Below are positions 10,501-55,978 of a DNA stretch of 64,000 nt, in pieces; positions within the stretch are counted from its first letter, which is position 1, and every line of letters begins with the position of its first letter. Origin of the DNA: Candidatus Nomurabacteria bacterium GW2011_GWD2_36_14. Lineage in GTDB: Bacteria; Patescibacteriota; Minisyncoccia; Phycocordibacterales; UBA9973. The stretch spans positions 379,200 through 443,199 of the forward strand of contig LBRL01000001.1 of NCBI GenBank assembly GCA_000991405.1, read 5' to 3'. The translations under genes were made by a program, and so were the position numbers. The notes below the pieces were generated by a model that saw nothing but the letters and a program-made list of their open reading frames with translations, did no database searches and had not been told where the DNA came from.

Positions 10501-11370
10501 TTGTATTATATAATAGGAATTATGACAACATTTGACACAATATATAAAAATTTAATAAAGCGAATAATGGAGGAAGGTATTGAAGAATTAAACGAAAGAA
10601 CAGGTCACAAAATAAAGATATTACCCGGCTTAACTTTCCAGACTGACATCGAGAAAGATGGGTTCCCTGTATTAACATTGCGAAAGAATCCTATTAAGTC
10701 TCCCATAGCTGAACAAGTTTGGTTTATTACTGGAGACAAAGATACAGAATTTTTAAGAAAATATACAAAAATGTGGGATGAATTTATTGAAGAAGATGGC
10801 ACTATAACTTCTGCATATGGTTATAGATGGCGTCATCATTTCGGAAGAGATCAACTAGACCAGCTAGTAAAACATTTGACCGAAGAACCTCACTCACGGC
10901 AAGGAGTTATTGTTACTTGGGATCCTGCTGATGATGGGTTATATGGAAAAGGATTAAAAGCAACTTATAAGAAAAATGCACCTTGCCCCTTTGCTTTCAC
11001 TATTAACATAATTGGAGGAAGACTTCATCTTCATAACATAGTTCGCTCAAACGACATGATGCTTGGCTGTCCTTTTGATACATTTGGTTTTAGTCTTATG
11101 ATGTGTGCCCTTGCTCAAAAGCTTGGAGTAAAGCCAGGAATATATACCCATACAATTTCGAATGCGCATATATATGACAATCATTACGAAGGAGCAAGAG
11201 AGCTTATAAAAAGAGAAAATGATCACCCTAATATATATCCCGTATTCCCTGCTGATATTTATGACCGAGCAGAGAGAAAAGATGAGACACTAGTTGATGA
11301 AATTTATCAATCTTTTAAACCATTTTTTAATCCAAGTGAACCGATAGAGGGATTAGATATAGTAAAATAA
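10501..11370 (+). CDS. Thymidylate synthase (ThyA) family enzyme carrying an Asp at the nucleotide-specificity position; predicted dCMP methyltransferase/hydroxymethylase or divergent TS
   Basis: The stretch RSNDMMLGCPFDTFGFSLMMCALAQ...SNAHIYDNH aligns gaplessly with E. coli ThyA [25 protein letters not shown]...GDTHLYSNH. The catalytic Cys sits in PCP (canonical PCH). E. coli N177 is replaced by D (PFDTFG), and D205 is replaced by N. Confidence 0.8.
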   Translation: MYYIIGIMTTFDTIYKNLIKRIMEEGIEELNERTGHKIKILPGLTFQTDIEKDGFPVLTLRKNPIKSPIAEQVWFITGDKDTEFLRKYTKMWDEFIEEDGTITSAYGYRWRHHFGRDQLDQLVKHLTEEPHSRQGVIVTWDPADDGLYGKGLKATYKKNAPCPFAFTINIIGGRLHLHNIVRSNDMMLGCPFDTFGFSLMMCALAQKLGVKPGIYTHTISNAHIYDNHYEGARELIKRENDHPNIYPVFPADIYDRAERKDETLVDEIYQSFKPFFNPSEPIEGLDIVK

Positions 11371-11373
11371 TTT

Positions 11374-11898
11374 ATGATTCTATCAATAATCTCAGCCATA
11401 GCAAATAATAATGAAATTGGAAGGAAGAATGAACTTCTATGTGATTTGCCTATCGATATGAAGCACTTCAGAGGAACAACTTCTGGACACCCAGTAATAA
11501 TGGGGCAAAGAACCTTTGAATCTCTCGGAACATCTCCAGATGGTAGTCTTGGTCGCCCTCTTCCAAATAGAAGAAACATAATACTTACTCTTGATAAAAA
11601 TTTCAAAAGAGAAGGAATAGAAATATATAATTCTATCGAAGATCTAGAAAAATCTTTAACTGAAACCATGGGGAAAGATGAGGAAGCATTTATCATAGGT
11701 GGAGGACAGATATATAAACTCTTCATAGACAAAGCAGATAGGTTATATATCACCCACGTAAATGCAGACTTCCCGGATGCTGATACTTTCTTCCCTGTTA
11801 TAGATAAAGATAAATGGAAAATTGTCTCCGAAGATAAACACGAGAAAGATGAACAAAATATATACGATTGTAATTTTGTAATATACGAAAGAAAATAA
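11374..11898 (+). CDS. folA: Dihydrofolate reductase
   Basis: The N-terminus MILSIISAIANNNEIGRKNELLCDLPIDMKHFRGTTSGHPVIMGQRTFESLG is typical of DHFR. It follows the ThyA-like gene in a classic operon arrangement. Confidence 0.85.
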   Translation: MILSIISAIANNNEIGRKNELLCDLPIDMKHFRGTTSGHPVIMGQRTFESLGTSPDGSLGRPLPNRRNIILTLDKNFKREGIEIYNSIEDLEKSLTETMGKDEEAFIIGGGQIYKLFIDKADRLYITHVNADFPDADTFFPVIDKDKWKIVSEDKHEKDEQNIYDCNFVIYERK

Positions 11899-11901
11899 AA
11901 T

Positions 11902-11938
11902 AAAAATCTCCGCTAGGTTTTGCCTAGCGGAGATTTTT
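11902..11938. terminator. REP-like hairpin / bidirectional terminator (AAAAATCTCCGCTAGG-TTTTG-CCTAGCGGAGATTTTT)
   Basis: Perfect 16-bp stem between convergent folA (+) and a MazG-like gene (-). It belongs to a hairpin family that recurs at 25705 and 27539. Confidence 0.6.
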
Positions 11939-53750: not shown

Positions 53751-53775
53751 ATTGAGTCCTTAAGGACCGTCTACA

Positions 53776-53808
53776 GGTGTCCATCAATACTGATGGACCT
53801 GCGTTTTT
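53776..53808 (+). terminator. Intrinsic terminator GGTGTCCATCA-ATAC-TGATGGACCTGCGTTTTT
   Basis: Stem-loop followed by T5, downstream of the aminotransferase gene. Confidence 0.5.
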
Positions 53809-53838
53809 AACAATCCGAGTACAGCTTAAAAAAATGGG

Positions 53839-53911
53839 AGCCATCCCCGAGACTCGAACTCGGCACCTATTCATTACGAATGAATTGCTCTACCAGATGA
53901 GCTAGGATGGC
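53839..53911 (-). tRNA. tRNA-Thr(CGT)
   Basis: My manual fold gives acceptor GCCATCC/GGATGGC, D-arm GCTC-ATCTGGTA-GAGC, anticodon stem ATTCA/TGAAT with loop TTCGTAA, and T-arm CCGAG-TTCGAGT-CTCGG. CCA is not encoded. Confidence 0.8.
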
Positions 53912-53963
53912 TTACAACTGAGTACTTTAACGAGAAAAATCCATGATGTTGATTCTAGCTCAT

Positions 53964-54146
53964 CTATATACATTTTTTAATCAAATCCAAACATTCTTCA
54001 TAAGCATCTGCTTTACCACCAATAAATTCATTCAATCCATATTCTTCAATATTCTCACTTTCCCATAAGTCCTCCTTCCAATCATCCCTATAATTTTTTG
54101 CTAATGCTGTTATTTCTTTTTCTAATAATTGTAATTTTGTATTCAT
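53964..54146 (-). CDS. Small acidic hypothetical protein (60 aa)
   Basis: ORF only, in the islet between two tRNA-Thr genes. Confidence 0.3.
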   Translation of the reverse strand: MNTKLQLLEKEITALAKNYRDDWKEDLWESENIEEYGLNEFIGGKADAYEECLDLIKKCI

Positions 54147-54183
54147 ATACTATAATCTTTGATCAAATAAAATATAAAGTCAA

Positions 54184-54951
54184 CTACTTAAGTCGGTATT
54201 TTCCAGCCTCAATAAACTCAATATAATTTTTATCTCTTAAAAATTGTAACTGCTGTCTTATTTTAGGCTTTATATTTTTATTTTCAGGATGTATAACAGC
54301 CAAATCTTTTTCAAAATCATATACATCTTGTAGTATAAACTCTTTCTTATTTAAAGCATCAATGCAGTTCATAATATCTAAAATCCAACCTTTGGCATTT
54401 GATTTTTTAACCTGTTTTAGAAATACTGTTTTCTGCCATTTTTCCAATACATCTTTTTTGTCAACCTCTTTTCCATTTTCAATATAAAAAATTTGCCCTG
54501 CTTTTGGAATTTTTGAGAATAGTATATTTGAACCAACCCAGCCAGCTCGTCTAGCACTTTCTGCGAGTGGTTTTCGCTCTTCTATAATTTCGGATACAAA
54601 AAAGTGTTTTGGAATAACAAAAAAATCATTCACATCCCACATCTTGACCATATAACCCATAAAAAAGAAATTCGGTTTTTGGAGTGAATTGATTCTCTTT
54701 ACCATTTGAGAATAAGCACCCGCAGAAACTTTTTTACCGATTCTCCCCTTTTTAGATTTCAACTCAAAATCTTCCGAGCATTTTTTACAATAAAAATCTG
54801 CGACTGGCTTATTATTAACATAATCATAAATACTATTACCACAACTCGGGCAATATATTTCTCTCAATACCCAATCTTCAGTCAGTACTCGTGCTTTTTG
54901 AGAATAGCTTGTGTACTTATCAGCTATTTTCGTCTTAAAAGTTAGGTTCAT
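54184..54951 (-). CDS. DpnI-like methyl-directed (Type IIM) restriction endonuclease
   Basis: 255 aa, collinear along its full length with S. pneumoniae DpnI (254 aa) as I recall it. N-terminal SQKARVLTEDWV...YCPSCGN...ADFYCKKCSEDFELKSKKG, a central PNFFFMGY / RKPLAESARRAGWVGSNI catalytic region, and a C-terminal winged-helix KIRQQLQFLRDKNYIEFIEAGKYRLK. Confidence 0.65.
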   Translation of the reverse strand: MNLTFKTKIADKYTSYSQKARVLTEDWVLREIYCPSCGNSIYDYVNNKPVADFYCKKCSEDFELKSKKGRIGKKVSAGAYSQMVKRINSLQKPNFFFMGYMVKMWDVNDFFVIPKHFFVSEIIEERKPLAESARRAGWVGSNILFSKIPKAGQIFYIENGKEVDKKDVLEKWQKTVFLKQVKKSNAKGWILDIMNCIDALNKKEFILQDVYDFEKDLAVIHPENKNIKPKIRQQLQFLRDKNYIEFIEAGKYRLK

Positions 54952-54954
54952 ACA

Positions 54955-55797
54955 TTATTTTCCAAGCTTATCTACCTTTTTCAAGCCTTTCTTTTCATCA
55001 GATTTTAATTTTCTTTCAATTTTCTTGATATCTTCTTCTTTTGGTAACCGTTCTGGAATAATTCCACGACCAATGAGTGTTTTTCTCACGCTACGATTAT
55101 TTGTAATGTGTTCCTCTGAAATAGCTTGTTCTGTTTTTAAATTTTTGCTCTTTGAATTGAAAATAGTAATCTCTGTTGCGAAATCTTTTGCTTTCAAAAT
55201 AATTGTTGGCTGGAAATCAGCAAGTGCTCGACTTTCTGGAACACCAAGTCGCTTTTTCATTTCTCCTGTCGTAAATCCAAACAAGGCTTTATCTCCCTTA
55301 CTTCTAATCAACCCAAAATTCTTGTCGCTACCAGTCTGCTGATAAATAACACCCGATAATTCTTTTTCAGTTTCTGTTAATTTTTGTCTAGCAGTAACTC
55401 GTTCAAATTCTTGTATTCGTTTTTCGATAATTTCAAACTTTCTTGTTTGCACTGCAAAATAATTTTGAGCAAATGCAATTTCTTCTTTGCGTGGGTCACC
55501 ATTTTGAGCTATCAAGTAAGAAGCATACCTAGTAAACATTATGTCCACGATTTCTCGCTCGCTTCCTGAACCAAGTTTAACCATTTTCCCGACATCGGCA
55601 AAATGGTCAGAAACTACTTGTTTGTTATTTTCACAAGCTATTTTTGCCTTTGATATAACTTTTATAAAATTATCCCACTTATCATATCCTAAAAGCTTTT
55701 GTAAATCACGTGCAAGCCAAAACTCAATACCCTCGTCAGTCTTATGTGAATTTGATTCAAAATTACTTATATGTGATTTTATAATTTCTATCTTCAT
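54955..55797 (-). CDS. dinD: DNA-damage-inducible protein D (DinD) / Bro-N domain protein
   Basis: EGIEFWLARDLQKLLGYDKWDNFIKVISKAKIACENNKQVVSDHFADVGKMVKLGSGSEREIVDIMFTRYASYLIAQNGDPRKEEIAFAQNYFAVQTRK aligns closely with E. coli DinD. I placed the start at the internal MKIEII, because the track ORF extends antisense into the tRNA. Confidence 0.7.
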   Translation of the reverse strand: MKIEIIKSHISNFESNSHKTDEGIEFWLARDLQKLLGYDKWDNFIKVISKAKIACENNKQVVSDHFADVGKMVKLGSGSEREIVDIMFTRYASYLIAQNGDPRKEEIAFAQNYFAVQTRKFEIIEKRIQEFERVTARQKLTETEKELSGVIYQQTGSDKNFGLIRSKGDKALFGFTTGEMKKRLGVPESRALADFQPTIILKAKDFATEITIFNSKSKNLKTEQAISEEHITNNRSVRKTLIGRGIIPERLPKEEDIKKIERKLKSDEKKGLKKVDKLGK

Positions 55798-55856
55798 ATA
55801 TAAATATATCTTAACATAATTTAAATATTTTACCCAAAATGATTTGGGTTTGATTG

Positions 55857-55931
55857 TGGAGCCGTCGGTGGGAATCGGACCCACGGTCTCTGTCTTACCA
55901 AGACAGTGCTTTACCACTAAGCTACGACGGC
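55857..55931 (-). tRNA. tRNA-Thr(GGT) with encoded CCA
   Basis: My manual fold gives acceptor GCCGTCG/CGACGGC, D-arm GCTT-AGTGGTA-AAGC, anticodon stem CTGTC/GACAG with loop TTGGTAA, and T-arm GTGGG-TCCGATT-CCCAC. The T-loop is slightly unusual, reading U54-C55. Confidence 0.7.
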
Positions 55932-55978
55932 TAAAACTGGCTTAATTCATACTACTATATATAACCCATATTTTCAAT

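Follow-up and report, generated by a model that had tools for sequence, protein, structure and literature searches.

The name 'Dam-replacing family' of Pfam family PF06044 derives from drg/NmeBII of Neisseria, a single gene inserted into the chromosome at a defined site, in a background without Dam. The family also includes the Type IIM endonuclease R.DpnI of Streptococcus pneumoniae (PDB 4esj, 4kyw), encoded in the dpnCD cassette, an operon in which the endonuclease gene is followed by the co-oriented gene dpnD, of unknown function (PMC4471560, PMC12630141). Here we analyze a 64,000-nucleotide (nt) stretch of Candidatus Nomurabacteria bacterium GW2011_GWD2_36_14 (contig LBRL01000001.1; referred to as the window, to whose positions our coordinates refer), in which a homologue of R.DpnI, a DinD-like protein and a small acidic protein are encoded in about 1.9 kb between two tRNA-Thr genes. 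Very likely, this islet is an integrase-less defence cassette that sits in the spacer between the two genes of a tRNA-Thr operon, in a Nomurabacteria-like member of the Candidate Phyla Radiation (CPR) and has a solitary Type IIM enzyme of the R.DpnI family as its core. Neither the enzyme family nor its annotation in CPR genomes nor the two-gene layout of dpnCD is new, and since the main enzyme is recognizable and annotated in public databases, this part of our findings is routine. The novelty is modest and lies in the partner families specific to Patescibacteria and in a tandem-GATC element placed between dpnI and its partner gene.

A DpnI homologue between two tRNA-Thr genes

The core gene of the islet (54184-54951, minus strand) encodes a protein of 255 amino acids (aa), which the original prediction had described as aligning end to end with R.DpnI. 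This description is borne out by the profile searches: the protein matches the Pfam families PF06044 (DpnI) over residues 1-180 (1.4e-73) and PF17726 (DpnI_C) over residues 186-253 (3.5e-32), its residues 1-253 align to residues 4-255 of the R.DpnI chain 4esj_A in a search of the PDB (E 3e-81), and in PADLOC it matches mREase_II, 'Type II methyl-directed restriction enzyme' (1.4e-101). The protein combines an N-terminal PD-(D/E)XK domain carrying a Cys4 zinc site with a C-terminal winged-helix (wH) domain. In R.DpnI, catalysis involves residues E25, D53, E64 and K66, and zinc is held by two CXXC ligand pairs (PMC3424567). All of these are kept in the 4esj alignment (E25, D52, E63, K65, C34, C37, C55 and C58 in the numbering of the window protein), whose conserved stretches include LTEDW, PVADFYCkkCsedFELKsKK and CPsCG. 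The same is true of the residues that read the methylated site: L129, R135 and W138, which form the methyl-binding cleft of R.DpnI with G140, and N48 and R126, which contact guanine (PMC4117772), are identical in six out of six cases ('eRKPLAesArRAGWvGsNI', 'NNkPVAD'). The recognition helix of the wH domain reads KIRQQLQ (K-P-KIRQQLQ) and keeps four of the five contact residues described for R.DpnI (E228, K229, R231, Q232 and Q235; PMC3424567), E228 being replaced by Pro; single alanine substitutions at these contact residues have little effect in R.DpnI (PMC3424567).

At the level of sequence, these results confirm the 255-aa protein as a full-length homologue of R.DpnI and as a DpnI-family Type IIM endonuclease. 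Given that the active site, the zinc site, the methyl-binding cleft and the wH recognition helix are conserved, we infer that the enzyme would cleave G(m6A)TC only when the adenines are methylated. An enzyme of such specificity would destroy phage or plasmid DNA entering the cell with Dam-type methylation but spare the GATC sites of the host, which would be unmethylated. An identical protein with the same neighbours is found on GCA_000992205.1 (LBTT01000003.1) and on a groundwater metagenome scaffold of 800,830 bp. Phage and plasmid collections are almost devoid of full-length DpnI: IMG/VR holds no close relative, the GenBank phages hold no full-length copy, and the only full-length copies in the plasmid collection lie in two 2.17-Mb N. 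gonorrhoeae records, apparently chromosomes mis-filed as plasmids.

The gene belongs to a group of three co-oriented minus-strand open reading frames (ORFs) of 60, 255 and 280 aa, bracketed by tRNA-Thr(CGT) on the left (53835-53912 in ARAGORN; Rfam tRNA, 60.7 bits at 53839-53911) and tRNA-Thr(GGT) on the right (55857-55931 in ARAGORN; Rfam tRNA, 71.5 bits at 55860-55931), both on the minus strand and both ancestral genes of the site. The original prediction had placed two tRNA-Thr genes of equal orientation around about 1.9 kb, and its outer coordinates equal those of the Rfam matches. The segment between the two genes (53913-55856; 1,944 nt) has a GC content of 31.1%, compared with 35.8% for the window, which puts it at the 5.8th percentile among windows of the same length. 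The 280-aa ORF (dinD, 54955-55797) is separated from dpnI by a gap of 3 nt, and the 60-aa ORF (53964-54146) begins 37 nt downstream of dpnI on the same strand.

To relate this segment to the state of the site in other genomes, we used loci of relatives found via the flanking aminotransferase gene (these and all other loci, given as L numbers below, were read as ±10-kb stretches); the closest species representatives are metagenome-assembled genomes of Candidatus Nomurabacteria/Paceibacteria. In three relatives (L007, L008 and L009) the two tRNA-Thr genes lie only 4-23 nt apart, an empty site with no remnant of an insert, while the closest relative (L005/L036), whose flanking aminotransferase is 85% identical at the aa level, has the same three genes at the site. 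Other relatives show other states. Unrelated DNA follows tRNA-Thr(CGT) in L006; an alanine-racemase-like gene (alr) lies between the two tRNA-Thr genes in L010 (9445-10590, minus strand) and after tRNA-Thr(GGT) in L009 (11413-12546, minus strand); and in L010 a free-standing LAGLIDADG endonuclease ORF (11213-11914, plus strand; PF14528, 1.2e-12), which the window does not have, lies between tRNA-Met and tRNA-Asp. The two positions of alr and the LAGLIDADG insertion mark the tRNA cluster as a hotspot for gene-sized indels and rearrangements. At the nt level, the islet genes of the window and L005 share 88-91% identity, compared with 74-85% for the flanking genes. Taken together, the comparison of these loci confirms that the segment was inserted between the two tRNA-Thr genes. 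The view of the original prediction that this is a small mobile or defence islet at a tRNA hotspot holds up as well, given the empty sites, the other insertions in relatives and a tRNA-free copy of the cassette elsewhere, and the comparison of presence and absence among relatives that it had proposed shows that the islet is not universal. On the far side of tRNA-Thr(CGT), about 85 nt (53751-53834) separate the tRNA from the stop codon of the aminotransferase gene in the window and contain two hairpins (53755-53768, and 53779-53798 followed by a T-run); in the relatives the tRNA lies within a few to about 40 nt of that stop codon, and the alignment shows the hairpin-bearing stretch in the window only.

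The tRNA-free copy is found in L041 (283-4765), where nt homology to the window (81%) extends from 55801 to 53948, that is, over exactly dinD, dpnI and the small gene; here, a gene for an XRE regulator lies upstream, and genes for an N6_N4 methylase and then a reverse transcriptase lie downstream. By contrast, homology to L033, L045 and L054-L056 runs from the start codon of dpnI to just past the small ORF. These limits of homology indicate that dpnI and the small gene form the core module and that dinD is an add-on. The dpnI gene travels paired with a small acidic partner gene, and in this lineage the DinD/Bro-N gene is joined to the front of the pair to give a three-gene operon. Among the neighbours of other related dpnI genes are genes for AbiEii, HEPN_AbiV, KAP NTPase, NERD, OLD-TOPRIM, TIR and Mrr proteins. 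A dinD-dpnI pair with an XRE regulator upstream also occurs in a tRNA-free defence island in L050 (287-5195), and the pair is followed in L041 and L050 by an N6_N4-class methylase gene (fused to a nucleotidyltransferase domain in L050) and then by a gene for a reverse transcriptase or a HerA-like ATPase.

Partner genes and the GATC-bearing element

Right after the dpnI stop codon, related CPR loci share a short element with the consensus TTGAC(T)-N13-GATCAA-N-GATC(A), and the ATG of whichever small gene comes next lies about 8-12 nt past it. In an alignment anchored on TTGA[CT] alone, the element is found in 45 of 49 unique sequences (about two-thirds of related CPR loci), with GATC at exactly +19; a second GATC at +26 is present in 34 of the 49, and the spacer positions are nearly uninformative. 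In 536 kb of DpnI loci there are 50 copies of the motif GATCAANGATC, and 47 of them lie within 60 nt of the dpnI stop codon. The element is observed across L029-L115 upstream of variable small genes, while in loci without it a different downstream gene abuts the dpnI stop. In the window, it occupies 54154-54183 on the minus strand: TTGACT at 54183-54178 is followed after 13 nt by GATCAA at 54164-54159, and the second site is degenerate (GATT, 54157-54154), the GATC of the element being the sole GATC of the islet. Since the geometry of the element matches that of a sigma-70-type promoter (−35 TTGACT, 17-nt spacer, −10 AANGAT), it can be seen as a putative promoter of the partner gene whose −10 hexamer overlaps the DpnI recognition sequence. 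This conserved element is a previously unreported detail and was missing from the original prediction.

The small gene behind the element encodes an acidic protein of 60 aa (pI 4.39; 15 D+E versus 8 K+R), for which we found 44 homologous clusters with 63-98% identity. It aligns to residues ~87-142 of an acidic family of about 142 aa and represents a form of this DpnI-linked partner protein that consists of the C-terminal domain only. The family (family A) is confined to Patescibacteria, with 681 matches, all annotated 'hypothetical', and with 137 clusters at the level of 50% identity. In the loci reached through DpnI, family A lies directly downstream of dpnI in every case, and conversely, look-ups starting from the partner found dpnI immediately upstream in three out of three. 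Among 61 non-redundant loci, 21 carry family A, and in 17 its place is taken by a second small acidic family. Forms with the N-domain only recur, as do forms with the C-domain only, the latter as dozens of clusters at 50% identity, and in L094 the partner gene is split into two ORFs. Compared with seven other short forms, the 60-aa ORF has a ratio of nonsynonymous to synonymous substitution rates (dN/dS) of 0.03-0.19 at dS 0.66-1.6, a pattern of strong purifying selection that marks it as a real gene. The AlphaFold model of the long form (pLDDT 88.8) shows a small alpha/beta N-domain followed by a helical C-domain and has no significant match in PDB or BFVD; the partner sequence itself is without a match in Pfam, PADLOC or PDB, and its match in PHROGs (phrog_37826, E 0.0025) is weak. 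The second DpnI-linked family comprises acidic proteins of 67 aa with two CxxC motifs, which are unrelated to family A and have no database match (for example L029 6803-7006 and L034 6796-6999, as well as L037 and others).

Strong as its evidence of selection is, the 60-aa ORF might nevertheless be a decaying 3' remnant of the 142-aa partner gene with no function of its own. It covers only residues ~87-142 of the full-length family, one locus (L094) has a split partner gene, and the element upstream of the ORF has lost its second GATC to a degenerate site in the window. Given the low dN/dS, the recurrence of proteins made of the C-domain alone and the fact that the ATG of the ORF lies at the normal distance from the conserved element, we consider such a decay quite improbable. 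A more speculative idea, which we put forward tentatively, builds on the promoter-like TTGACT-N13-GATCAA-N-GATC element, which carries the DpnI recognition sequence: instead of being a solitary enzyme, DpnI of Patescibacteria could be the constant half of a two-part system, in which the two GATC sites over the −10 region would make expression of the partner respond to GATC methylation or DpnI binding, and the partner in turn would modulate DpnI. The response would start when a Dam-encoding phage begins to methylate the cell, and the partner, be it the two-domain protein of 142 aa, its C-domain alone as in the window, or the 67-aa Cys4 protein, might inhibit DpnI or mimic DNA and so prevent self-cleavage, or it might switch the cell to abortive infection. 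If true, a Type IIM enzyme would here be governed by a regulatory circuit that senses methylation, and this would be a first clue to the function of dpnD-like genes.

DinD, host methylation and alternative explanations

The original prediction had assigned the 280-aa protein to the DinD/Bro-N type. This assignment is supported by a match to the NCBIfam DinD equivalog NF008573 over residues 1-278 (355.1 bits, compared with a cut-off of 242 bits) and by the Pfam match of its N-terminal domain to Bro-N (8.6e-11). The protein also matches the PADLOC defence candidate PDC-S13 (PDLC04919, 3.1e-113), a name under which we found no literature, and phrog_8036 in PHROGs (4.3e-92), and homologues of DinD are present in 254 phage records. 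Its gene starts at the ATG at 55797 and not at the GTG at 55917, which overlaps the tRNA, and its homologues likewise begin with MKIEIIKS. In E. coli, the dinD promoter is LexA/SOS-regulated. A scan of both strands of 53913-55957 for LexA boxes found no GAAC-N4-GTTC, CTG-N10-CAG or GTTC-N7-GTTC, so that SOS control in the style of E. coli is not evident in the islet. The islet-free relative L008 encodes, at another place in its 21-kb locus, a DinD-like protein with 44% identity over 250 aa.

A palindrome upstream of dinD had been assigned to the dinD promoter in the original prediction, at 55824-55841. The palindrome ACCCAAAATGATTTGGGT exists, but 8 nt away, at 55832-55849, 7 nt downstream of the 3' end of tRNA-Thr(GGT). 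It is missing from L005/L036, the closest relative with the same islet, and its fold energy is not significant (z = −1.46; 18 of 200 shuffles fold as well). With neither conservation nor significance, the reading as a promoter or operator of dinD fails, and we regard ACCCAAAATGATTTGGGT as a lineage-specific hairpin. At the corresponding position of L005/L036, between tRNA-Thr(GGT) and dinD (L005 13162-13261), ~95 additional nt contain a strong GC-rich hairpin, GGGCGGAGC-GAA-GCTCCGCCC.

In terms of base composition, GATC is the most depleted of the 256 tetranucleotides in the window (121 observed versus 197 expected; observed/expected ratio 0.62), which suggests a long-term GATC-directed restriction pressure in the lineage. 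We had to discard this depletion as evidence linked to the islet: it is shared by relatives with or without the islet (L005, L007-L010; ratios of 0.65-0.84), and being common to islet-free relatives it is a lineage trait that says nothing specific about the islet.

This shared depletion is one of several observations that weigh against a DpnI-based defence cassette. The identity of the 255-aa protein to R.DpnI is about 55%, a by-eye estimate from the 4esj alignment rather than a computed value. As many as 23 of the 61 related non-redundant loci have neither partner family, so the partner is not obligatory. The host would lack Dam, as the original prediction had implied, and the scan that bears on this, which found the methylase motif [DNSH]PP[YFWH] in no ORF of at least 80 aa, covered the 64 kb of the window, whereas the genome measures at least ~0.8 Mb. 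DpnI homologues are 75-94% identical at the aa level across diverse CPR, a degree of conservation unusual for defence genes that may point to a different role. Finally, inspection of the three ORFs and a search for boundary repeats found no integrase, transposase, att repeat or target duplication at the islet, which makes any insertion mechanism a conjecture; the best boundary repeat pairs are 14-nt matches of 93%, of chance quality. One inverted match of this kind, between the 5' part of tRNA-Thr(CGT) (53895-53908) and 53952-53965, was considered as an att remnant and rejected, with ~0.6 such matches expected by chance.

The absence of a mobility gene and of flanking repeats would also fit a segment that is ancestral to the clade, part of the core tRNA operon region, and was lost in the relatives. 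Moreover, the two carriers, the window and L005/L036, are each other's closest relatives, so that one event in their common ancestor explains the distribution as well as a gain does. Nevertheless, we find an ancestral segment distinctly unlikely, as three separate relatives have closely spaced tRNA genes with no trace of an insert, the same cassette occurs in an unrelated locus where homology ends within a few nt of the outer genes, the GC content of the islet is below that of its surroundings, and the islet genes are more alike between the two carriers than their flanks are. A role of the DpnI homologue in housekeeping or regulation in CPR, for instance as a reader of methyl-GATC tied to DNA uptake between symbiont and host, would account for its unusually high conservation; CPR take up foreign DNA, genes for a pilin and a PilD-type peptidase lie nearby in the locus, and conserved GATC sites adjoin dpnI. 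Such a role appears very improbable to us in view of the patchy distribution of the gene among close relatives, its invariable location in variable, defence-rich neighbourhoods and its intact nuclease active site.

A further alternative concerns the composition of the system rather than its origin. DinD, DpnI and the small protein could form an obligate three-component system in which, for example, DinD senses or regulates, DpnI executes and the small protein inhibits. The narrow gap between dinD and dpnI speaks for this, as do the recurrence of the trio in L005/L036 and L041 and of the dinD-dpnI pair in L050, L051 and L087, the match of a DinD-like domain to the N-terminal portion of a model for Type I specificity subunits (PDLC03083, 2.3e-50) and a Bro-N gene located 3 kb from dpnI in L118. 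On the other hand, DinD is adjacent in only ~6 of 87 related DpnI loci, the module of dpnI and the small gene occurs without DinD in many contexts, with homology from the dpnI start codon onwards, and DinD is catalogued as a single-gene candidate that is common in phages, which lack DpnI. We therefore regard an obligate trio as unlikely. Returning to the defence cassette, its arrival and its spread between related strains would probably have proceeded by homologous recombination through the conserved flanking tRNA genes, in a manner resembling the exchange of the pneumococcal dpn cassette. On this reading, the islet shows cleanly, at the level of sequence, how CPR bacteria with their ultra-small genomes can acquire defence genes in the absence of mobility machinery. 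It also implies that, in aquifer communities, DNA with Dam methylation poses a relevant threat.

Comparison with known systems

Among the described relatives of the enzyme, drg/NmeBII of Neisseria belongs to the same Pfam family, with the N. gonorrhoeae protein showing 40% identity over 99% of the protein. However, drg replaces dam whereas the islet splits a tRNA operon, and the Neisseria locus has no small partner and no GATC element after the stop codon of drg. As for the 280-aa protein, it resembles E. coli DinD and PDC-S13 in its full-length match to both models and in its N-terminal Bro-N domain, but in contrast to E. coli dinD, its gene lies in an operon with a restriction enzyme and lacks a LexA-box-like motif. 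The islet as a whole shares with tRNA-targeting genomic islands the presence of lower-GC foreign DNA next to tRNA genes and its presence/absence variation in relatives. Unlike them, it lacks an integrase, att direct repeats and a duplicate of the tRNA 3' end, and it is located between two intact tRNA genes instead of at one 3' end.

The closest counterpart is the pneumococcal dpn system. The window enzyme and R.DpnI are both solitary, with no accompanying methylase, and share the two-domain build, the end-to-end alignment and the catalytic, zinc-binding and methyl-cleft residues. In both cases, a co-oriented gene comes after the endonuclease gene, and the cassette occupies a fixed chromosomal site with conserved flanking genes. 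Unlike dpnCD, the islet has a DinD gene upstream, a conserved TTGACT-N13-GATCAANGATC element after dpnI, and a downstream partner with no detectable Pfam match. The alternative states of the site differ as well, being empty (L007, L008, L009), alr (L010) or unrelated DNA (L006) here and not a DpnII-type restriction-modification system. The linkage between dpnI and its partner, together with the tandem-GATC element, might explain why the pneumococcal DpnI gene, too, has an uncharacterised partner.

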